Below are positions 39,930-51,156 of a stretch of DNA of 64,000 bases, piece by piece (within the stretch, counting starts at the first letter, position 1; every line of letters begins with the position of its first letter). The position numbers and the translations under genes are program-made. Where the stretch lies: NCBI RefSeq assembly GCF_048403405.1, contig NZ_CP183129.1; one strand, given 5' to 3'. This stretch comes from Escherichia coli. GTDB lineage: Bacteria; Pseudomonadota; Gammaproteobacteria; Enterobacterales; Enterobacteriaceae. Below the pieces are notes generated by a model. The model worked only from the letters and a program-made list of their open reading frames with translations. It was not told the origin of the DNA and made no database searches.

Positions 39930-40299
39930 TTCGCCTCCGGATACTTACCCAGGGTAATGTTATTTACCGTTCTGTAATTGTCGCGGGTCATCAGGCCGGT
40001 CGCCCTGCGAGCCCGGAGGATATCGATGCTGTTTATTAACTGAGAGCGGGTACAGGCGCTGAATCCCGGCTGGTCGGTAGCACCAGCGCGTATTTTTCCA
40101 CGAGAAAGTTCACCGCATCACACAGTGAAATGCCTGCCTCAATATGCTGCTCAATCACACGTTCATCGGCAAAAGGTGTGTCATTCTGTGTGAGGCCATA
40201 GTGCTGGTCCAGCAGTCGGGACAGCAGTATCTGCCAGATTTCAACAGGAGACGGGCGAGAACTGGCCGCCTGCCCGGGTAATACAGGTAATGTTTTCAT
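39926..40299 (-). pseudogene. cbtA: CbtA (YeeV) toxin gene, frameshifted
   Basis: N-terminal 72 aa match CbtA; intact ORF ends after 87 aa, while the remainder of the toxin is readable in another frame down to the yeeW start. Confidence 0.65.
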
Positions 40300-40387
40300 A
40301 CTGAAGATTTTCCTGATATGCAGATATAAAAATGGAAAAGTGGCGTGGTGAAAACACCAGGCCGTAGCAGAAGGCTATTCTGGAGAG

Positions 40388-40756
40388 TTAATTTTTCATT
40401 TCGGGCGTCGGATAAACAGCCAGATAAACGTAACCACAACTGCTGAGGGTATCGGCTTTGCAGGTCAGCCCTTTTGCATACAGCGTGACGGTATGCTGAT
40501 GGCGGGGATTCAGTTCACCGCTGGTGAGCATGAGTTCCAGTTGTTTCATCAGCAGCGGAAAGGCCTGGTCCAGGTGGTACGCATCTGCATCGCTGAACAG
40601 GCCTCTGATACCGGCGCGGTCGGCAAGGTAATGCAGGCGGTTACCCTCCTGCACCAGACGTGCCCCGAAACAGGGCGTCACGGTGCAGGGCAGCCCCCAC
40701 CAGGGGCGGTCGTGATTGTCGTCGGGAAGTGTTGTCCCGGGGAGTGTGTCTGACAC
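40388..40756 (-). CDS. cbeA: CbeA (YeeU) antitoxin
   Basis: 122 aa; recalled CbeA sequence; directly upstream of cbtA. Confidence 0.85.
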   Translation of the reverse strand: MSDTLPGTTLPDDNHDRPWWGLPCTVTPCFGARLVQEGNRLHYLADRAGIRGLFSDADAYHLDQAFPLLMKQLELMLTSGELNPRHQHTVTLYAKGLTCKADTLSSCGYVYLAVYPTPEMKN

Positions 40757-43208: not shown

Positions 43209-43619
43209 TTAGATTTTAAGTTTGTCCTGGGCTACAACGACAGGTTTTCCGGATGTGTCGATGACTCCTACCGTCGGTACGCCATTTTTGATTTCGAAGA
43301 ACGGTTTGTTGCTACCTGAGCACAGTTGATTGTCCCCGTATTCAATCATTTGTGCTTTCCCGGTTTTCAGGTTAACTACCGAGACAGTGTAGTCGTAGCA
43401 CCAGGCACCACCACGCTCAAGCACGAAAACATAGCTGTTATCTTTATAGTTGAACTGATTCTTTGTCTGGCAATTCATACCGTCAATTTCGGTACAGGAA
43501 AACGCTTCTGTAGTATTAACGTATTTGATGTTATTTGGCAGTTTTACTTGTTTCGCAGTAGCGAAGACAGAGAACAGAATAGTTACAGCAACGAGTAAAG
43601 TTTTGATAAAAGTTTTCAT
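43209..43619 (-). CDS. Small secreted protein, 4 Cys, unknown function
   Basis: 136 aa; signal peptide MKTFIKTLLVAVTILFSVFATA; low GC. Confidence 0.55.
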   Translation of the reverse strand: MKTFIKTLLVAVTILFSVFATAKQVKLPNNIKYVNTTEAFSCTEIDGMNCQTKNQFNYKDNSYVFVLERGGAWCYDYTVSVVNLKTGKAQMIEYGDNQLCSGSNKPFFEIKNGVPTVGVIDTSGKPVVVAQDKLKI

Positions 43620-43634
43620 GATAGACTCCTTAAA

Positions 43635-44123
43635 TTAGTTAACCGCAGCTACGTAGTTTTTCACCAGATACGCGAATTCATGCACGCCAATTTCACCGAA
43701 CCAAACCAGGTAGGCCGGGTCATCTAAACCAAAGTAACGGTAGCCAACAACTTCATGGGTTTTTGGGTTATAGAGTGTTACGATAAAGTCCCAGCCGCAG
43801 GTATTGGCTTTGCAACCGTCGCCCTGGAACCAGACTGTACCGTTAATGTTTACTGGCGTGATACCTCCACCAGGGCCATCCATATAGCCGCCTTTACCGA
43901 ACATGCCGCTCAGTCCGACCGGTTTTAATGCTTTGTCGATAGCGGCTTTGTAGGTAGCGTCACCTTCGTACAACTCGTACGTTGATGGACACGCTCCAGG
44001 TTGTTCAGCCCAGGCTTCCGGGTTACAACTAAGAGCTTGTTTTACGGTAGCCGCTTCTGCGTTAAAGTTAAAGCCCGTGAACAGAACCGCCAGAAATAAC
44101 ATAAGGGTATGTAAACGTTTCAT
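43635..44123 (-). CDS. Secreted protein, possible Ivy-like lysozyme inhibitor (variant CKxxxCG motif)
   Basis: Start chosen at MKRLHTLMLFLAVLFTGFNFNAEA signal peptide; ORF is open in frame up to 44426 with a second signal-like segment; GDGCKANTCGWDFIV resembles Ivy CKPHDCG region. Confidence 0.5.
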   Translation of the reverse strand: MKRLHTLMLFLAVLFTGFNFNAEAATVKQALSCNPEAWAEQPGACPSTYELYEGDATYKAAIDKALKPVGLSGMFGKGGYMDGPGGGITPVNINGTVWFQGDGCKANTCGWDFIVTLYNPKTHEVVGYRYFGLDDPAYLVWFGEIGVHEFAYLVKNYVAAVN

Positions 44124-44453
44124 TGTAAATATTCTTCCGTTGTAAATGGCGCTGGAAAATTTCTCATCAGTGAAACCTTCCGGAAGTTTCCCCCCCTTGT
44201 ATGATGTATATCGCCAGTATTTTATTTCATCCCGGCTGTAATTTTTATATTCCCCGGCACGTGCAATAACGCTGACCAGAGATATAAGGCTCATTAATAA
44301 CTTTACAGGTAATTTCATAATTAAATTTCCAGTGAGTGAATTGACAGGTGAGGGGTAAAACTTTCTCTCAGGTAATATATATCTGAAAATATTTTCAATA
44401 ACACCAGACAGGAAAAACACCACCACAGGCGGTGGCGTTTCTTTGGGGCGTCT

Positions 44454-45524
44454 TTATTTAATCCGGGCCATCGCGTTTCTCAGTGCCAAATCTGCCTCTT
44501 CCGTTATATCCAGGCTTTTCTGCAATACCGCCTCTGACCGGGTCAGTGCCTGACGTGCTGCCAGCGGTTTCCGGATATGCTCCATCGCCAGCATCGTGTC
44601 TTCATAGCCCTGCTGACGCCAGGCGTCGGTATGTGCCGATGTAAAACTGAGCAGACCGCCGCTGTTGCCACCATCACCTGCATATTTCAGCCTTTTCCGG
44701 GGACGGATCTCAAGGATTGTGGTGTCCGGAAAAGCCTGGCGATCCCATAAAGAACCGTCACTCAGATGCGTCACAATCACCATATTGCATCCGGCATCGA
44801 CCAGAGGCGTCACAGGGGTATTTCCCTGCATATTTCGCCATCCTCCCATACCACCATCACCGAACATTGTCCCCTGAACCTCACGGGGACGGAACAGCAG
44901 GGGCAGCGCGGCTGACGCAAGCAGAGCCTCTTTCTGCTGTCCGCGGGGCAGGCTCTGGATATGCTGAAAAACGGCGTTTTTCGTGGTTCCGACACCCAGT
45001 TCAGCACGAATGCAGTCAATAATATCCTGCATGCCCCCTTCTGTGGGGTACAGCGACACATACAGCGGTAGCCCGTCTGCCAGAGCATCAGTATCAAGAT
45101 AATGATCCATCAGCGCTGTCAGGGGCTCATCTGACAACAACGGCTGAGCCATCAGATTGTCAAACCCGTTGATTGTCGATATATGGCGAAGAAGCGTCGT
45201 AAGCAGTGCTCCTGCACGTCCGGGGATCTGGCAGAGGTTCATTGCCTGGAACAATTTTTTCAGCAATGAAAAGTAAACCAATCTGTTTACCGACAGCACC
45301 TGATTATTCCCCAGATGATCCCAGAGCGCCTCCAGGCGTACGGCAGCTTCTGACAGATCGGTAGAGGCCGCGATAATGGCACCATTGAATGCGCCAATGC
45401 TGGCCCCTGAAACCATGCTGATCTGTGTACCACACTCTGCCAGTGCCTTAACCACTCCCGCCTGATAAGCGCCCACCGCCCCGCCACCGGACAGCACCAG
45501 CCCCGTTTTCATTTCTGTACTCAT
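44454..45524 (-). CDS. Patatin-like phospholipase
   Basis: 356 aa; oxyanion GGGAVGAYQAG, nucleophile GxSxG (GASIG), catalytic DGG (FGDGGMGG); start ATG overlaps upstream stop (ATGA). Confidence 0.8.
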   Translation of the reverse strand: MSTEMKTGLVLSGGGAVGAYQAGVVKALAECGTQISMVSGASIGAFNGAIIAASTDLSEAAVRLEALWDHLGNNQVLSVNRLVYFSLLKKLFQAMNLCQIPGRAGALLTTLLRHISTINGFDNLMAQPLLSDEPLTALMDHYLDTDALADGLPLYVSLYPTEGGMQDIIDCIRAELGVGTTKNAVFQHIQSLPRGQQKEALLASAALPLLFRPREVQGTMFGDGGMGGWRNMQGNTPVTPLVDAGCNMVIVTHLSDGSLWDRQAFPDTTILEIRPRKRLKYAGDGGNSGGLLSFTSAHTDAWRQQGYEDTMLAMEHIRKPLAARQALTRSEAVLQKSLDITEEADLALRNAMARIK

Positions 45525-46426
45525 GCAGCCCCCTTCTGAAATATTTCATCGACCATACTTTCAGAGAGGCGTTCTGCAGAGCAGAGGCGAGGCATGCGAA
45601 CCGGTAAGTGTTCTGCAGCCTGCGTGGTTGACCAGATCACCGGATGCTGCTCTTCACTGCACCAGTCTCCCAGCCAGTTAATCGCGTCATGCCACTCGTT
45701 ATCTGCCTGCTCCCGGCCCTGACCACCAAGCCAGTCCAGAGTGTTCAGACGCACGGTTGCACTACCGCCACTCTCCTGTGCCATCTGCGTTAATGCTTTA
45801 TGTCTGAGAATATCCAGTAGCTGGTTAACCTGGCCTGTTTCGCTCTGACGTATCACATCACCAAACGCGCCCCAGCGAAGCTCTTCAAGTGCCACATAAC
45901 AACGTCCGGCAGGGGAAAATGACGCATATCGCCCGGCGCTCCACCATGAGAATATCTGCTCAAGATGTAACTGCGCCCGCTGAACCTGGTCAACACGGTG
46001 GAGTTTTTCTTCAAGATGATTCAGTTTATGGTGAACCTGATCGGCCAGGGTGAGTAACTGCTCCCGCGTATCTGCGGAATAATGCGCCAGCCTGGCTGTA
46101 TCACTGACCAGTGAACTGACCCTGTCGTTTACCCGGGTAATCGCGTAGTTTGTGGTGGCAAGTGACGTTGTCATCTCCGTCAGCCAGCGCAGGGACGCCT
46201 CAACGCCCTGTGCAAGCGACGCATTGATGGCATTCTGCCGTGCAGCGCCTTCGCCGGTCAGCCCCTCTTTTAAACGCCGGAAGAACGTGCGCTCTCCGGC
46301 CGTGCGGATATGCTCCTGTGCAACATCGATTCCGTTTGCGAAATCAACCACAAATTTTTCAGGAAGACAGGTGAGTACCTGACATACCCGGTTATCAGCA
46401 ATTTGTTGAATAAATGGTGAAGTCAC
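45521..46426 (-). CDS. Hypothetical 301-aa alpha-helical protein coupled between the GTPase and the phospholipase
   Basis: GTG start overlaps stop of upstream gene, own stop overlaps patatin ATG; no recognised motif. Confidence 0.55.
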   Translation of the reverse strand: MTSPFIQQIADNRVCQVLTCLPEKFVVDFANGIDVAQEHIRTAGERTFFRRLKEGLTGEGAARQNAINASLAQGVEASLRWLTEMTTSLATTNYAITRVNDRVSSLVSDTARLAHYSADTREQLLTLADQVHHKLNHLEEKLHRVDQVQRAQLHLEQIFSWWSAGRYASFSPAGRCYVALEELRWGAFGDVIRQSETGQVNQLLDILRHKALTQMAQESGGSATVRLNTLDWLGGQGREQADNEWHDAINWLGDWCSEEQHPVIWSTTQAAEHLPVRMPRLCSAERLSESMVDEIFQKGAA

Positions 46427-48819
46427 AGCATTGTCTCCAGCTCTTCCCTCAGCGCCTTACTGTCAGTAATGAGCTCAGGAACCCTTTCATTTAATGCCTG
46501 AAGTCGCCCGGTAAGCCGTTCCTGCGCCTGCTGATCGCGTTTATGATCTTCAGAGCTCTGAATCAGCGTGTTACGCAGTTGTTCAACTTTCTCCCTGAAT
46601 GCGCAGAAAAAGGCATCGATTTCCTGGCGGACGGGCTGGTTAATATCCTGCTCAATGGATGCCTGCAGCTCCCCGAAATATGCCCGGGTCAGTGACATAA
46701 CTTCCTCTCTGACCTTGTTGATATTGATCACGCTGCGACTCACATCCTCGTCATAGTTTTCCCAGCCCAGGTCACTGGTGCCAAACCATCGACAAACGGT
46801 TCCCCATACGCCACTCTGCCGACGGCGACGGGTGACGGTCTCCGTTCTTTCCTCCATAAGCGCACTCAGATTTATTTTTACCGCGAGCCGGGTCTGTAAC
46901 TGGCTGACTGCCGGAAAACTGATTTTTACGGTAAAGCCCTCATCCTCCAGGCGGGCATTGATGCGACCGGCAATGTTTTCTGTGGCGTACAGGGCCGTGC
47001 CACGAAAACCTGTTTCAATCCCGCTGACGATTTTCTCCAGCTCAGGCCGGAACTGTGCTTCAGCCTCACGGTGCAGGCTGGTCACGGTCGATTCGATTTG
47101 CGTCATCAGTTCAAGGGCTTCCCTGCGATCACTGAATTTTATTTCGGGGCTGTCCGGGGCAAAATCTCGTTTCCTGTAATCCTCCCGGCCCTGGTTGTTG
47201 ATACCGGACCATTGAGAAATTTTCCCCCATAATCCGGACTGAGACCTTCGTTGTTCTGCGTCTTCTTCCTCCAGCATTTGCTGTTCTTTGCGTTTACCGC
47301 TTCTGAAATAGTCATTCAGCTCCTCTTCCAGTGAGGTGCAGACCCCCGTCAGTAATTCCCGGGTTTTAGTATCGATCTCCTCCATGGCCATTCTGACATC
47401 AGTGGTCATCTGCTCCTGACAGTCCGCGATTTCCCGGATATCCGCAAGCAGGCTGGTGATATGCGACTGCAGTGACTGAATGCTTTGCTGTAGCCCCTGA
47501 TGGCGTAACAACAGGTATTCACTGATATTTTCTGCATTCTGCATCAGTTTTGCGGCGGCAGAGTCAACCGCCAGTGCCGCAGCTCTGGAATGTGAGCTCT
47601 GTATGACTTCCGTTATCAGTTGATCGATAAGTGAGCCTTCCCACAGGTCTGTCGCCCCTTCAGTTGCCAGTTCACTGTCTTTACAGACGTATTCTTTTTT
47701 CATGCAACCGAAGGCACCTCTGATAAAATCATCGACCCAGGCTTCATCAACAGGAAGGGTTCCGTTTTTCCGTAACTCATGAAGCGCACGGTTAGCCAGG
47801 TATGCCTGGCGTGAGGATCCGGGATAAACGCGGGAGGCGGGCAGCACATCGCTGTTCAGCATTGCCGGAACTTTCTGGCGTACGGCATCTGCCCCATCGC
47901 CATTGCGGTCTTTCTCATCAAATTTATTGACCAGTACAAACAGGCGGCCGGCTGATACGTCAGCAATGGCATTAAGCTCTTTACGGACGTCTTCATCCGC
48001 TTTTGAGTTCATCTGGGTGTAATCCATCACAGCCAGAACCGCAGAGGCTTTCTGCAGTTGATCCCGCATCATCACTTCCATCTGCGGTTGTCCGGCCTCA
48101 TTAGGGCCGGGGGTATCCAGCAGTGTGAGTGTTCCCTGGCATGCATCCATCCCCACCAGATGGCTGAATTCCACGTCGATCACCGGCAGTTTCTGCACTT
48201 CTGCGTATTCATCAAAAGGAAATTCAGTCCCCATTGCCGCAGCAAGACGAACCAGATCGTTTAACGATGCCAGTCCGGTAAAGATTTCCTCCTCCCCGTG
48301 GTATTCATTTTTGAGCCAGCCATCATCCGTCAGAATATCCAGCAGTTCGCGGGTATCCCCGGTTTGCTGCAGGGTCTGTGCGACCTGCTGTCCTGCCGGG
48401 GTGGCGAGTTTTTCCTGCAGTGTGATTAATAAATTGCGGACAGGCTGAATATGTTCCAGATGGAGAACCGGCTCAGTTTTTCCGGGAACGTGGCGGATGA
48501 GCGTCGGTACAGAGGTCATGGGGCGGTTACGGTTAGGCAGAATTTCCTGCCCCACAATGGCGTTGATGGTGGTTGATTTGCCTGCTTTCATCGTGCCGAC
48601 AACAGCCAGCACCATCTCCCTGCGGGCGGTTTTGATTTGTTCGCCCTCCAGCTCCTCAATTCTTTTCAGTGCTTTCTGTTTATCAAAAAGCAGTCTGTTT
48701 TCGTTCTTACTGTCAGATAACACATCTGGCTCCTCAACCATTTGCCGGAGCAGATTAATGTTCAGTTGCAAAAGTCGGTCGGCTTCATCACAAAGCAGGG
48801 CGATGTTCTTTTCGTGCAT
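46423..48819 (-). CDS. Dynamin-like large GTPase (bacterial DLP)
   Basis: 798 aa; P-loop GTMKAGKST, DTPG, NKFD in the first 300 aa, then about 500 aa helical/coiled-coil-like region; RBS GGAAGG upstream of ATG. Confidence 0.75.
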   Translation of the reverse strand: MHEKNIALLCDEADRLLQLNINLLRQMVEEPDVLSDSKNENRLLFDKQKALKRIEELEGEQIKTARREMVLAVVGTMKAGKSTTINAIVGQEILPNRNRPMTSVPTLIRHVPGKTEPVLHLEHIQPVRNLLITLQEKLATPAGQQVAQTLQQTGDTRELLDILTDDGWLKNEYHGEEEIFTGLASLNDLVRLAAAMGTEFPFDEYAEVQKLPVIDVEFSHLVGMDACQGTLTLLDTPGPNEAGQPQMEVMMRDQLQKASAVLAVMDYTQMNSKADEDVRKELNAIADVSAGRLFVLVNKFDEKDRNGDGADAVRQKVPAMLNSDVLPASRVYPGSSRQAYLANRALHELRKNGTLPVDEAWVDDFIRGAFGCMKKEYVCKDSELATEGATDLWEGSLIDQLITEVIQSSHSRAAALAVDSAAAKLMQNAENISEYLLLRHQGLQQSIQSLQSHITSLLADIREIADCQEQMTTDVRMAMEEIDTKTRELLTGVCTSLEEELNDYFRSGKRKEQQMLEEEDAEQRRSQSGLWGKISQWSGINNQGREDYRKRDFAPDSPEIKFSDRREALELMTQIESTVTSLHREAEAQFRPELEKIVSGIETGFRGTALYATENIAGRINARLEDEGFTVKISFPAVSQLQTRLAVKINLSALMEERTETVTRRRRQSGVWGTVCRWFGTSDLGWENYDEDVSRSVININKVREEVMSLTRAYFGELQASIEQDINQPVRQEIDAFFCAFREKVEQLRNTLIQSSEDHKRDQQAQERLTGRLQALNERVPELITDSKALREELETML

Positions 48820-48880
48820 TATTTAACCTTCCTAAGACGCATTTTCATGACAACCACGGAGGAGGTCATTTACTACAAAC

Positions 48881-48949
48881 GATCGTTTATAACGATCGAT
48901 ATGATAGTAACGATCGATGTATTCTATTAACTTGAGAAACACAACGCAA
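48881..48949 (-). promoter_or_regulatory. Sigma70-like promoter (TTGCGT-N17-TAGAAT) followed by three GATC sites in AACGATCG repeats; candidate Dam/OxyR phase-variation switch
   Basis: Minus strand: TTGCGT, 17-nt spacer, TAGAAT, then CGATCG x3 within about 35 bp, about 60 bp upstream of the GTPase ATG. Confidence 0.5.
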
Positions 48950-49036
48950 GGGGACAACCCGGGTATGGCTGCGTTTGCATAGTGTTTTCATGGAGTTAAA
49001 AATCTGTAACAACAGCCTGGTACATCACCACCGGGT

Positions 49037-49909
49037 TCAGAAGAAAATCCAGTTCCATACCGCGCGGGCAACAGAGACCACCGAGTCACGGACGGCACGC
49101 AGAACCGTGCGTGCAACAGAGGCAATACAGGCGCTCTCCGCCGTGTCAAATATCCGGTCCACCGCACCGGTAAACTGTTCACGGGCCTGAGCGCGGACAG
49201 ATTCCGTGCGCAGCTCGTCCTGCAGGCGGGTCATCAGGGGACTGGCGGCATGGTCGGGAAGTGCTGTCATGAGCGCACTGACCAGCGTATCCAGTTCCCA
49301 GCCGGTGCGGGCCGATACGGCAACAACCCGATGTACGGGCCGGAACAGACGGAATACCGCCTCCGTTTTTTCGCGAATGTTCTGTGCCTGTGCGGGAGAA
49401 GGCTGAATACCGGCCATATCCCATTCATGGCAGGGCTCCGTTTTATCGGCCTGCATCACCACAAACAGTACCCGCTGATGTCCCCGGTGCAGGATGTGTC
49501 GCCAGAAATACTCATCCACAGACAGGGCACGGTCATCGGCTTTAATCAGCCACAGTACCAGGTCCAGTTCGGGCAGAATGTCACGGTACAGGGCTTCATA
49601 CTCTGCATCCCTGTCCCGGCTCTCGCCCACCCCGGGCAGGTCAGTGATAACCATGCTGTGACCATGGCCATTCAGACGGAAGCGCTGCACTTCCCGGGTG
49701 CCGGCGTGAACATCACTGACCGGGGTGATCTCCCCCTGAAACAGCGCATTACAGAGTGAGGATTTACCGGCCCCGCTTTTACCCATAATGCCAGGCACGG
49801 GTTCGTGACTGGTGAGTTTGCGCAGATGTTCCAGGATGTGACGGGAAAGTGAGTAAGGCAGGGAGGAGAGCGGTTTTTCAATTGCCTCAATGGCATCAGA
49901 CGGATTCAT
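49037..49909 (-). CDS. yeeP: YeeP/YfjP/YkfA-family prophage GTPase
   Basis: Start chosen at MNPSD; P-loop GIMGKSGAGKSS, DLPG, MQADK; conserved CP4-type backbone gene. Confidence 0.7.
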   Translation of the reverse strand: MNPSDAIEAIEKPLSSLPYSLSRHILEHLRKLTSHEPVPGIMGKSGAGKSSLCNALFQGEITPVSDVHAGTREVQRFRLNGHGHSMVITDLPGVGESRDRDAEYEALYRDILPELDLVLWLIKADDRALSVDEYFWRHILHRGHQRVLFVVMQADKTEPCHEWDMAGIQPSPAQAQNIREKTEAVFRLFRPVHRVVAVSARTGWELDTLVSALMTALPDHAASPLMTRLQDELRTESVRAQAREQFTGAVDRIFDTAESACIASVARTVLRAVRDSVVSVARAVWNWIFF

Positions 49910-49992
49910 ACATGTATTCCCGGTGAAAAAAGACAAAACCCCGCGCACCGGAAAGGTGGCGGGGGATTCACGGAAATAATATCTGTCTGAAA

Positions 49993-51156
49993 TTATCTGG
50001 AATCGATTTGGCTGTTCTGCCTGGTTGCCACCAAATCATGGTACGCCTGCTCAATCATTTCATTCAGCAGTTTTTTTGGGAGGACACCACGACTTCGGGC
50101 AATACTTTCAAGCTGTTTGTGGATTTTTCCGGACAGTTTCAGAGGGACGGAACCATCAGCACGTTCATCACGCCTTTTTTGTTGCTCCCGGGCACTTTTC
50201 AGCTCATCAAGAAGAATCGCTTTATGCTGAATCCTGGGGGCCTGGAAGGAGACCTGCGTAAACTTCGCTCTGTTCCGTCTGGGATTACTTTCCAGTAAAA
50301 ACTGTACCTGTTGCTCATTCCAGCCCTCCCAGTTATCAAACGTGGCGCAGGCAAACCAGTATTTCTGCTCCGGGGTAAGGGGATTCAGCGGGGTTCCCAC
50401 ACACCGGATCTGCATGGCGTTCCATAACCAGTCACACTGTTCACTGTCCCTGCTGTCCACCCACGAAAAGGGGGAGGGGTAATCATTGTTTATGCTGGCC
50501 CATTCAGAGAATACTGAGTTGATAATCGTCCTCGTAGCCTCTGGTCCGGATTTCAGCAGGTAACTGGAGCAGAACCATATAATTTCACGGTAGATTTTAT
50601 CCGGATGCACGGTGCGCATCGGCTTTTCTCTGGGACCGGCAATCTTCGGTTGCGATGGAAACCCCGTGGCAAACCGCAGATGTTCCGGGGGCATTCCTGA
50701 ACGTTTTTCAGGAATGGGTGTGAGTCCTGCGTTTCTGGTCTTTTCCGCTTGTCCGGTATTGCCTCCGGCCGGAGTGTTGTCGGGAGTATCTTCCGGAGGC
50801 GAGGTGTTTTCATTAGTTGGGGGAACAACAGCAGAACTGTCCATCTCCGGAATGGGTTGAGGGGCATAATCACTGTGGTAGCCAGGGGAAAGCGTTAAGT
50901 CCCGAAGGGTGACATCAGGTTCCGGGCAGTGAGTGCCACCGGGAGTGAACGGGAGTTGTTGCTTTTGGGAGAAAAATGTATTGTGAATGCGGGTATACAG
51001 CTGGAACAGAAAAAAATAAGATGCCCGTGGTTCTTTTTTTAACCACTGTGTATATTCCTCTATGGCACCGAGCTGTTGTTTGTGCCGTTTTACAGTATCG
51101 ATATACGGACAGCTGGTGCAGATATCATCCAGTTCCTTTCCCACAATACACCTCAC
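49993..51156 (-). CDS. Hypothetical prophage protein with Pro-rich linker
   Basis: 387-aa ORF directly upstream of the yeeP-like gene; no confident family assignment; true start uncertain. Confidence 0.45.
   Translation of the reverse strand: MRCIVGKELDDICTSCPYIDTVKRHKQQLGAIEEYTQWLKKEPRASYFFLFQLYTRIHNTFFSQKQQLPFTPGGTHCPEPDVTLRDLTLSPGYHSDYAPQPIPEMDSSAVVPPTNENTSPPEDTPDNTPAGGNTGQAEKTRNAGLTPIPEKRSGMPPEHLRFATGFPSQPKIAGPREKPMRTVHPDKIYREIIWFCSSYLLKSGPEATRTIINSVFSEWASINNDYPSPFSWVDSRDSEQCDWLWNAMQIRCVGTPLNPLTPEQKYWFACATFDNWEGWNEQQVQFLLESNPRRNRAKFTQVSFQAPRIQHKAILLDELKSAREQQKRRDERADGSVPLKLSGKIHKQLESIARSRGVLPKKLLNEMIEQAYHDLVATRQNSQIDSR

Follow-up and report, generated by a model that had tools for sequence, protein, structure and literature searches.

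Among the described bacterial systems, the closest one to the locus considered here is the RdcA-RdcB pair of Escherichia coli K-12, in which the dynamin-like GTPase RdcA (also known as CrfC or YjdA) docks on the MASE1 domain of DgcE, binds RdcB (YjcZ) and activates DgcE, a process for which GTP hydrolysis is needed (PMC6510439). RdcA binds both the DgcE MASE1 domain and the beta-clamp, its active form is the nucleotide-free one, and it has been reported to be soluble and regulatory, not membrane-remodelling (PMC6510439). In a stretch of 64,000 nucleotides (nt) of E. coli DNA (NCBI RefSeq assembly GCF_048403405.1, contig NZ_CP183129.1; hereafter, the window, meaning this whole stretch), two genes paralogous to this pair are followed by a third one. 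This trio of minus-strand genes encodes (i) a dynamin-like GTPase of 798 amino acids (aa) (gene 1); (ii) a 301-aa protein of the YjcZ/RdcB family (gene 2); and (iii) a 356-aa patatin-like phospholipase (gene 3). The three genes very probably constitute one functional unit, with the lipase as the partner of the GTPase/YjcZ pair.

A first-pass annotation of the window, made from the letters alone, had not recognised this pairing; genes 1 and 2 are, however, a paralogue of the characterised RdcA-RdcB (PMC6510439). The likeness is threefold: (i) the same two families occur in the same order, with a 4-nt overlap and homology over their full length; (ii) the P-loop lysine and the switch-I threonine are equivalent (K81 and T102 here; K82 and T103 in RdcA); and (iii) both proteins are predicted to be soluble. 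By analogy, the logic shared by both systems is likely that of a GTP-state-dependent pair that switches on an enzyme. But while the K-12 pair occupies the core yjdM-rdcAB locus, is controlled by FlhDC/FliA and has DgcE as its client, the trio is borne by islands and plasmids, has an agn43-like promoter in the E. coli window and includes a third, overlapping patatin gene whose product is presumably the client.

The three open reading frames (ORFs), which begin with ATG, GTG and ATG, respectively, lie where the first-pass annotation had placed them (Table 1). The junction between genes 1 and 2 (GCTGTGACTT) is a GTGA and that between genes 2 and 3 (TGCATGAGTA) an ATGA, both of them being 4-nt stop/start overlaps, and all three starts are preceded by a purine-rich, Shine-Dalgarno-like run. 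Since, in addition to these overlaps, promoter-like and terminator-like sites bracket exactly these three genes (the terminator-like hairpin lies 20 nt past the patatin stop codon), they are considered here a single unit.

This arrangement is strictly kept across species. A profile scan of one genome per GTDB species yielded 79 YjcZ loci, which were then sorted by tblastn. All 35 island-type loci contain the dynamin, YjcZ and patatin genes in that order, mostly joined by 4-nt overlaps; their hosts are gamma- and betaproteobacteria, together with two metagenome-assembled genomes (MAGs) binned to Syntrophomonadaceae and Synergistaceae (contigs L025 and L042; their non-proteobacterial assignment may be a binning artefact). 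By contrast, in the 44 core RdcA/RdcB-type loci, all of them from Enterobacteriaceae, there is no patatin gene within 7 kb in any case: these are plain two-gene operons next to yjdM. Upstream of yjcZ, the gene encodes a dynamin-like GTPase in all 79 species loci with upstream sequence available. The co-occurrence across genomes that the first-pass annotation had proposed to check is, hence, present in every island-type locus.

Altogether, the same three genes in the same order were found in 38 loci of different species, with protein identities of 32-99%. Such recurrence of genes, order and, mostly, overlaps is far beyond chance. When the ORFs of the flanks were clustered, only the three trio families were common to all 38 loci, and there was no fourth gene: the next "families" were antisense shadow ORFs, while real neighbours were common to at most 7 loci. 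Proteins related to gene 3 over its full length (45-65% identity) are encoded in Pectobacterium, Yersinia, Erwinia, Plesiomonas, Providencia, Vibrio, Budvicia and Pseudomonas; in every context examined for them, the same dynamin and YjcZ genes precede the patatin gene. The trio is also present in free-living environmental taxa, i.e., Gallionella, Allochromatium and Methylomonas. Small genes located 3' of the Pseudomonas patatin gene were considered as a possible conserved fourth gene and discarded, as they are found in only 4 loci.

With 486 clusters at 50% identity among 1.84 billion representatives, YjcZ is a small family. A patatin gene directly follows that of YjcZ in three of the most divergent members listed, whose identity to gene 2 is 24-28%, and none of the four contexts sampled among divergent YjcZ loci contains another effector in place of patatin. 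One dynamin-less variant was found (L092:6001-8630 in our set of loci; ENA ERZ19489111 contig_1), in which a 532-aa protein composed of DUF3944, a hydrophobic stretch and a C-terminal YjcZ domain is followed by a patatin gene through a 4-nt overlap. This variant adjoins parE/parC, apparently on the core chromosome, and it is the sole such architecture among the 150 best family representatives. Since it keeps the YjcZ fusion and the patatin without the dynamin, it points to YjcZ as the lipase-proximal partner.

Taken together, these comparisons argue that, judging from gene order, the patatin link would be the general rule for the YjcZ family and the enterobacterial RdcAB pair the exception. 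A neighbour-joining tree of YjcZ is star-like; in it, the core RdcB sequences form a monophyletic group which, with the root placed at the midpoint, is the sister of all the others. A nesting of the core clade within the trio clade was not seen, and the tree gives no direction of descent. That RdcAB could derive from the trio is suggested by two observations, namely the wider host range of the patatin-linked clade and its greater diversity (down to 17% identity versus 37% within the core clade).

Gene 1 matches the Pfam family Dynamin_N (E = 1.6e-17, residues 71-299) and contains the motifs GTMKAGKST (75-83, with K81 as the P-loop lysine), DTPG (235-238) and NKFD (298-301), as well as the switch-I T102; motifs and T102 are invariant or near-invariant in 28-32 orthologues. 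Its AlphaFold2 model, built from 28 orthologues (predicted local distance difference test score, 79), shows the GTPase (G) domain and, after it, very long helices that span 399-527, 565-625 and 700-797. All Foldseek matches in the PDB belong to the dynamin superfamily: BDLP (7e-14), SynDLP (1e-13), IniA (9e-12), MFN1/2, Fzo1, LeoA (9e-7) and the Campylobacter DLP1/DLP2 pair, with template modelling scores that are low (0.2-0.3) because the domain arrangement differs. Both the assignment to the bacterial dynamin-like GTPases and the long helical region after the G domain, already proposed in the first-pass annotation, are therefore well founded.

Over its whole length, gene 1 matches the NCBIfam CrfC model NF007368 with 556.2 bits, below the equivalog cutoff of 1146 bits, and it is 33% identical to the CrfC of strain REL606 over 744 aa (E = 1e-123), the G domain being far more alike than the stalk, which has some 55 extra residues. 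With such a score, and in an island locus with a third gene, it was rejected as an RdcA/CrfC orthologue and is, by sequence, a paralogue. The stalk is the least conserved region of gene 1, except for a tryptophan-rich loop (W672-G673...D683-W684-G685) placed by the model between two long beta strands, a candidate that could act as a tip element. No 19-residue window exceeds a hydrophobicity of 1.6, nor is there any segment resembling a transmembrane helix or a hydrophobic paddle. In the Synergistaceae MAG (L042:1290-6356), the ORF of the dynamin homologue stays open for 1688 codons, about 870 of them upstream of the homologous part, which reflects either an N-terminal fusion or the mere absence of an upstream stop codon.

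Regarding gene 2, the first-pass annotation had described a middle protein with no recognisable motif. This was mistaken: it is an all-helical protein that matches the Pfam family YjcZ (PF13990) along the entire model (E = 4.7e-70, positions 1-272 of 272) and shares 30% identity with the core RdcB over 281 aa. The blocks KFVVDFANG and EELRWGAFG are conserved in the family. Among solved structures, the search for a structural homologue of YjcZ returned only generic helical bundles, and a tblastn search of 50,697 phage records found no relative of gene 2. One family member (P0375, 426 aa) has its central helical region expanded by a tandem repeat of about 35 residues (FAKVDGQISGLSEDLNQVKGVVGNLQNDVHHK...), a sequence feature which suggests that part of the YjcZ protein may be a length-tolerant coiled spacer.

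Gene 3 matches the Pfam family Patatin (PF01734; E = 8e-24), and its sequence relatives in the PDB include PlpD, VipD and ExoU, both catalytic regions aligning to PlpD. The oxyanion glycines G13-G15, the nucleophile S42 (in GASIG) and D223 (in DGG), the latter two forming the Ser-Asp dyad, are invariant in 38 orthologues at 41-94% identity. With the orthologues compared for the G motifs of gene 1 counted as well, the identities span 32-94%. The catalytic motifs are thus intact and gene 3 is a predicted patatin lipase, as had been noticed from the first; indeed, every motif quoted in the first-pass annotation (for gene 3, GGGAVG, GASIG and GDGG, in addition to the three of gene 1) was found. 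Gene 3 is not an RssA equivalog (NCBIfam), and it was rejected as a CapV equivalog (NF041079) with 19.5 bits against a cutoff of 200.

Other known systems share some of these parts. Eleos/LeoABC and the Bacillus subtilis DynA are, as gene 1, dynamin-superfamily GTPases found on mobile islands or linked to phage defence. But the trio has one dynamin gene, and not a pair or a tandem fusion, while Eleos lacks both YjcZ and lipase; DynA, on its part, acts by membrane binding and sealing, without an effector enzyme. In PADLOC, gene 1 has no LeoA match and its LeoBC match (E = 8.6e-5, 19.8 bits) is limited to residues 29-89 and ends where the G domain begins, so that membership in Eleos/LeoABC was rejected, in agreement with the first-pass annotation. 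Similarly, in the cyclic oligonucleotide-based antiphage signalling system (CBASS), patatin effectors are switched on to degrade the membrane (PMC13069673). Gene 3 shares with CapV of type I CBASS the Ser-Asp-dyad patatin fold of an inducible membrane-degrading effector (PMC13069673), but its control is proposed to depend on protein partners instead of a cyclic nucleotide. The PADLOC CapV model matches gene 3 with E = 4e-5 at residues 9-73 only (the N-terminal block of oxyanion and GxSxG motifs); given these low scores, and with no CD-NTase (cyclic nucleotide cyclase) gene in the operon or its flanks, a role as CBASS effector was rejected.

The trio is frequent in E. coli and evidently mobile. 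At a coverage of at least 80%, it was found in 2443 of the 5426 complete E. coli genomes (~45%), where its location is nearly always chromosomal and one genome may contain as many as five copies; O157:H7, sequence type (ST) 131 and O145 strains are among the carriers seen. The core crfC gene was matched in 5417 of those genomes, so trio carriers have both systems. An allele of about 62% identity is present on plasmids of Klebsiella, Enterobacter and E. coli, some of them conjugative (a neighbour is annotated as "dGTPase" in Klebsiella and Enterobacter copies). In E. coli AW1.7, for instance, the trio sits on a mobilizable IncFIA/FIB plasmid (L097; NZ_CP073626.1 1372-5743), between IS5 and IS30 and near repE. 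None of the three proteins matched a PHROG. An element of the IS3 family of insertion sequences interrupts the dynamin gene in several strains, O145 ones among them (e.g., NZ_CP031353.1 2179288-2185301), and truncated or fused forms of each of the three genes are numerous in protein databases, which points to recurrent inactivation of the module.

Outside Escherichia, the flanks of the trio are mutually unrelated and often defence-like or mobile. According to Pfam, they include BrxR/WYL, ADP-ribosylglycohydrolase and an integrase in Pseudomonas; SIR2 plus DUF87 and a group II intron in Vibrio; and McrB, WYL and PDDEXK_4 in a metagenome contig. PADLOC was run on 30 large flanking proteins from 15 species, and the matches comprised (i) a full-length BrxC (Pantoea); (ii) a type I restriction-modification methylase with its specificity subunit (Pseudomonas putida); (iii) PDC-S24 (HdN1); and (iv) partial matches to IetA, PDC-S26, SNF2/DrmD, restriction enzymes, a reverse transcriptase and MADS components. 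Positive examples of co-localisation with defence genes were found in about 10 of the 19 loci examined, a raw count without background correction. These neighbourhoods make the defence or membrane-targeting role put forward in the first-pass annotation plausible.

In E. coli, the trio has a particular promoter region. The window corresponds to the chromosomal region that runs from the his operon through sbcB to tmaR and then enters a CP4-44-type island. There, the trio sits between a YeeP-like GTPase gene and the block formed by DUF932, antirestriction, yeeS, yeeT and cbeA-cbtA genes, that is to say, in the slot that flu (the gene of Ag43, also called agn43) occupies in K-12. Both cargoes lie directly downstream of a yeeP-type GTPase gene in the same island family, and both have a homologous promoter/OxyR-site segment with three GATC sites in register; nevertheless, the cargo here is a cytoplasmic three-enzyme operon and not an autotransporter adhesin, and the long 5' leader that contains isrC is missing. 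A comparison of positions 48820-49036 with the K-12 region (L098:2713-3039) shows that the two loci have in common the promoter/switch and the 3' end of the yeeP-like gene, but neither what lies between these two elements nor the leader that follows (isrC in K-12).

The 217-nt intergenic region 5' of gene 1 contains three copies of a ATCGATCGTTA-like motif, each one with a Dam site. These GATC sites (48915-48912, 48897-48894 and 48884-48881) lie at -96, -78 and -65 from the ATG of gene 1, with a spacing of 18 and 13 nt versus 19 and 13 nt in the K-12 agn43. The aligned segments read CTCAAGTTAATAGAATACATCGATCGTTA-CTATCATATCGATCG-TTATAAACGATCG in the window and CTCAA--TAATAGAATAAAACGATCAATATCTATTTTATCGATCGTTTAT-ATCGATCG in the K-12 yeeP-flu region, and the -10 box TAGAAT is, together with its flanks, identical to that of K-12 (CTCAA..TAATAGAATA). 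The local alignment score is 51 versus 17.6 +/- 2.3 in 1000 shuffles (z = 14.5), and the OxyR half-site consensus is matched at 8 of 10 positions in the window and in K-12 alike. A generic promoter scan chose a neighbouring, weaker pair of hexamers. Four alleles with differences elsewhere (the window, O157, ST131 and Escherichia albertii) have all three CGATCG cores unchanged. Outside Escherichia, these repeats are not conserved: at least two CGATCG cores upstream of the trio were found in only one of 32 species loci (that of E. albertii), and none in the plasmid variant. Hence, the switch is a lineage-specific addition and not part of the module.

In agn43, Dam methylation of three GATC sites blocks the binding of OxyR to its single repressor site, so that lineages arise which inherit either the ON or the OFF state; dam mutants are locked in the latter, and oxyR mutants or Dam overproducers in the former (PMC2909390, PMC3764049). 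Given the homology of the promoter region to this switch, the Escherichia trio is predicted to be phase-variable. The occurrence of the same switch before two different cargoes suggests that it is a reusable "cargo promoter" of CP4-type islands.

Table 1. Coordinates of the trio and of its candidate control sites in the window.
Feature	Coordinates	Strand	Basis
Candidate sigma-70 promoter (-35 TTGCGT, 48949-48944; 17-nt spacer; -10 TAGAAT, 48926-48921)	48921..48949	-	Homology to the agn43 promoter
Candidate agn43-type Dam/OxyR switch (OxyR-like half-sites, three GATC)	48873..48927	-	Alignment with K-12 yeeP-flu
Gene 1, 798-aa bacterial dynamin-like GTPase, RdcA/CrfC/YjdA paralogue	46423..48819	-	Pfam, NCBIfam, AlphaFold2/Foldseek
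Gene 2, 301-aa all-helical YjcZ/RdcB-family protein; GTG start overlaps the gene 1 stop	45521..46426	-	Pfam PF13990
Gene 3, 356-aa patatin-like phospholipase with a C-terminal extension of ~115 aa	44454..45524	-	Pfam Patatin, PDB sequence matches
Intrinsic-terminator-like hairpin and T-run (CACCGCCTGTGGTGGTG TTTTTCC)	44418..44434	-	Consensus match alone

How the trio might work can be proposed along the following lines. By analogy with RdcA/RdcB, the soluble dynamin-like GTPase and its helical YjcZ/RdcB-type partner would form a nucleotide-state-dependent switch or scaffold, with the dynamin as the input or assembly module, YjcZ as the lipase-proximal partner and, as client, the co-translated patatin-like phospholipase in place of DgcE. 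The trigger would probably be infection by a phage or a foreign element, possibly sensed through the GTP pool, the membrane or the assembly state; the triggered complex would then license the lipase, and hydrolysis of inner-membrane phospholipids would lead to cell arrest or death. In the dynamin-less variant, the membrane-anchoring N-terminal domain might supply the input or the localisation instead. In Escherichia, where the operon lies behind a copy of the agn43 switch, only a heritable subpopulation would express it, which could be a form of bet-hedging for a dangerous effector. An abortive-infection type of defence is favoured here because of the mobile and patchy distribution of the trio, its defence-type neighbourhoods and the existence of patatin effectors in CBASS. 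For the reading as a whole (a lipase controlled by a GTPase and an adaptor, abortive-infection-type defence, phase variation in Escherichia), we see about an even chance of its being right. A further, tentative step, which may well be wrong, is that the trio is an immune system, in which the nucleotide or assembly state of the GTPase gates the lipase by way of a dedicated adaptor, and the widespread ancestral form of YjcZ-containing loci, that RdcA/RdcB is a domesticated, lipase-less derivative rewired to DgcE, and that the Escherichia form is phase-variable.

Several observations weigh against this lipase-based defence. Around half of the sampled flanks have no PADLOC match, and several of the matches are partial or generic (helicase, methylase), so the neighbourhood evidence is suggestive in a qualitative sense and does not amount to statistical enrichment. 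PADLOC-DB 2.0 has no model for the trio and gives weak, partial matches only; the main text of a 2025 preprint on the discovery of defence systems in E. coli (DefensePredictor) includes no such system; and the searchable literature holds no data on phage protection, toxicity, interaction or lipase activity for it. None of the three proteins contains a membrane-spanning or strongly hydrophobic segment, so that membrane targeting is assumed. As for the switch, the spacing of the OxyR half-sites is 1 nt off that of agn43, and a phase-variable promoter would be more usual before genes for surface structures than before those for cytoplasmic effectors.

This last point also bears on a different explanation, which we consider unlikely: that the dynamin and the lipase repair, reshape or shed membrane (maintenance, remodelling or vesiculation), the lipase providing lysolipids or curvature, in which case any effect on phages would consist of delayed lysis instead of abortive infection. 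The B. subtilis DynA seals damaged membrane, and the LeoABC proteins of enterotoxigenic E. coli promote vesicle-associated toxin release. The fold of gene 1 belongs with the BDLP/mitofusin/LeoA group of remodelling proteins, switches of the agn43 type normally drive envelope or surface traits, and carriage by so many complete E. coli genomes is easier to understand for a non-lethal function; besides, in two reports, DynA is described as protecting at the population level by membrane binding (PMC8844932, PMC12998192). But gene 1 lacks a paddle-like hydrophobic segment and its closest relative is the soluble, regulatory RdcA (PMC6510439), the strict coupling to YjcZ and the dynamin-less YjcZ-patatin variant fit lipase regulation better, and the phase switch, being specific to Escherichia, says little on the ancestral function. 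Mobility could be read in yet another way, i.e., as the mark of an addiction or stabilisation module in which the GTPase/YjcZ pair restrains a patatin toxin that is freed upon loss or perturbation of the element, any anti-phage effect being secondary. The DNA that carries the trio is in all cases mobile or variable (CP4-like islands, beside a CbtA/CbeA toxin-antitoxin pair; IncF plasmids, between insertion sequences), and its frequent disruption, both by IS3 in the dynamin gene and as truncated or fused ORFs, is typical of costly selfish cargo. Nevertheless, a GTPase of 800 aa would be unusually elaborate as an antitoxin, differential stability is not in evidence, and the architecture is kept at 17-40% identity across beta- and gammaproteobacteria, apparently chromosomal contexts included, all of which make this explanation quite improbable.

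Two other explanations start from the relatives of the individual proteins. Both genes 1 and 2 are homologous to RdcA/RdcB over their full length, the automatic name of gene 2 derives from RdcB, and the core rdcAB pair is present in essentially all E. coli (5417/5426), so that cross-talk is conceivable; the island pair might then modulate DgcE or another MASE1/GGDEF protein, with consequences for biofilm or motility, and the patatin would be an accessory or a passenger. A passenger, however, would hardly be expected never to be absent from the island-type clade (35/35) and never to be present in the core one (0/44), or to overlap yjcZ by 4 nt in most species. Moreover, the trio clade reaches far beyond Enterobacteriaceae, the home of the DgcE-regulating pair, its proteins are no more than some 30% identical to the core ones, and conservation is lowest in the GTPase stalk, likely the client-binding part; we therefore give this second-messenger role little credence. 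As to gene 3, its nearest solved sequence relatives include PlpD, VipD and ExoU, and islands of the PAI-CFT073-aspV type carry virulence cargo (PMC12922286, PMC13182975); gene 3 might thus be a virulence phospholipase that is secreted, like ExoU or VipD, with the help of genes 1 and 2 as chaperones or in export. Gene 3, however, has no signal peptide and none of the autotransporter or POTRA domains of PlpD, there is no adjacent secretion system, the similarity to ExoU and VipD is confined to the N-terminal block of catalytic motifs, and the module is also present in free-living taxa such as Gallionella, Allochromatium and Methylomonas. Secretion appears, in consequence, extremely improbable.

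The trio is less novel than the first-pass annotation had supposed, given its paralogous parts, its annotation across genomes and its flagging, in 2026, as a candidate defence operon. The Prokaryotic Genome Annotation Pipeline (PGAP), the source of the automatic name of gene 2, already labels the genes in thousands of genomes ("dynamin family protein", "diguanylate cyclase regulator RdcB family protein" and "patatin-like phospholipase family protein", respectively); in the searchable literature, it is true, the trio has neither a name nor a functional test, and in that respect the claim of an undescribed system stands. An RNA-seq study of strain MP1 found the operon on two E. coli islands, with EcoKI and Druantia nearby, noted that the pair is ~30% identical to the core RdcAB, and proposed it as a putative dynamin phage-defence system (PMC12922286); in another study of the same year, the trio is listed as island cargo (PMC13182975). 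In MP1, the operon is transcribed and its expression differs strongly between sister strains (the lysogen and its cured derivative), without its up-regulation tracking the lytic/lysogenic decision; Ag43, OxyR, Dam and phase variation are not mentioned (PMC12922286). Choosing ON or OFF colonies is known to yield spurious "regulators" of agn43 (PMC3764049), and the MP1 lysogen and its cured derivative may likewise differ in their phase state, which would explain the "prophage-induced" expression more simply. What is added here is the YjcZ-patatin rule, the split from the core RdcAB, the mobility on plasmids and islands, and the agn43-type switch.

If the proposed lipase-based defence is true, nearly half of the sequenced E. 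coli, as well as many other proteobacteria, carry a membrane-attacking effector system, and patatin effectors have a third mode of control, based on a large GTPase and an adaptor instead of cyclic nucleotides. In that case, the name "diguanylate cyclase regulator RdcB family" would mislead as to the patatin-linked clade, to which 35 of the 79 species loci belong and which is the more diverse one. The poorly understood RdcA/RdcB pair gains an evolutionary context, and the agn43 epigenetic switch would have in the trio its second natural cargo, a practical warning for the transcriptomics of carrier strains.

Some observations on the genes around the trio deserve mention. The YeeP-like small GTPase (MMR_HSR1 type; 49037-49948, minus strand) has a weak PADLOC LeoBC match (E = 5e-8), and a homologue adjoins the trio in 6 loci, including those of Pectobacterium and Pseudomonas; since it is also present in islands without the trio (K-12 yeeP), it is treated here as island backbone. 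Upstream of it, a 387-aa hypothetical protein (49993-51156, minus strand) with a low-complexity centre rich in Pro, Thr and Glu is kept at the same position in matching E. coli genomes; it has no match in PADLOC, NCBIfam or PHROGs.

Directly downstream of the operon, two small minus-strand genes (43209-44318) of lower GC content (~43-45%) encode proteins with signal-peptide-like N-termini. The 136-aa one matches phrog_8968, of unknown function (E = 2.6e-45), and the 227-aa one has a second, internal signal-peptide-like segment (MKRLHTLMLFLAVLFTGFNFNAEA) near residue 66, so it may represent two ORFs or have its start misplaced. The ST131 allele has both genes, but the O157 allele and all other genera lack them, which is the reason why they were discarded as further members of the module; the "five-gene cluster" of the MP1 study may reflect read-through from the trio into them. 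Farther downstream (40036-40756), the CbtA toxin gene is truncated or frameshifted (an 87-aa ORF; "frameshifted" according to PGAP in matching genomes), while the cbeA antitoxin gene is intact.

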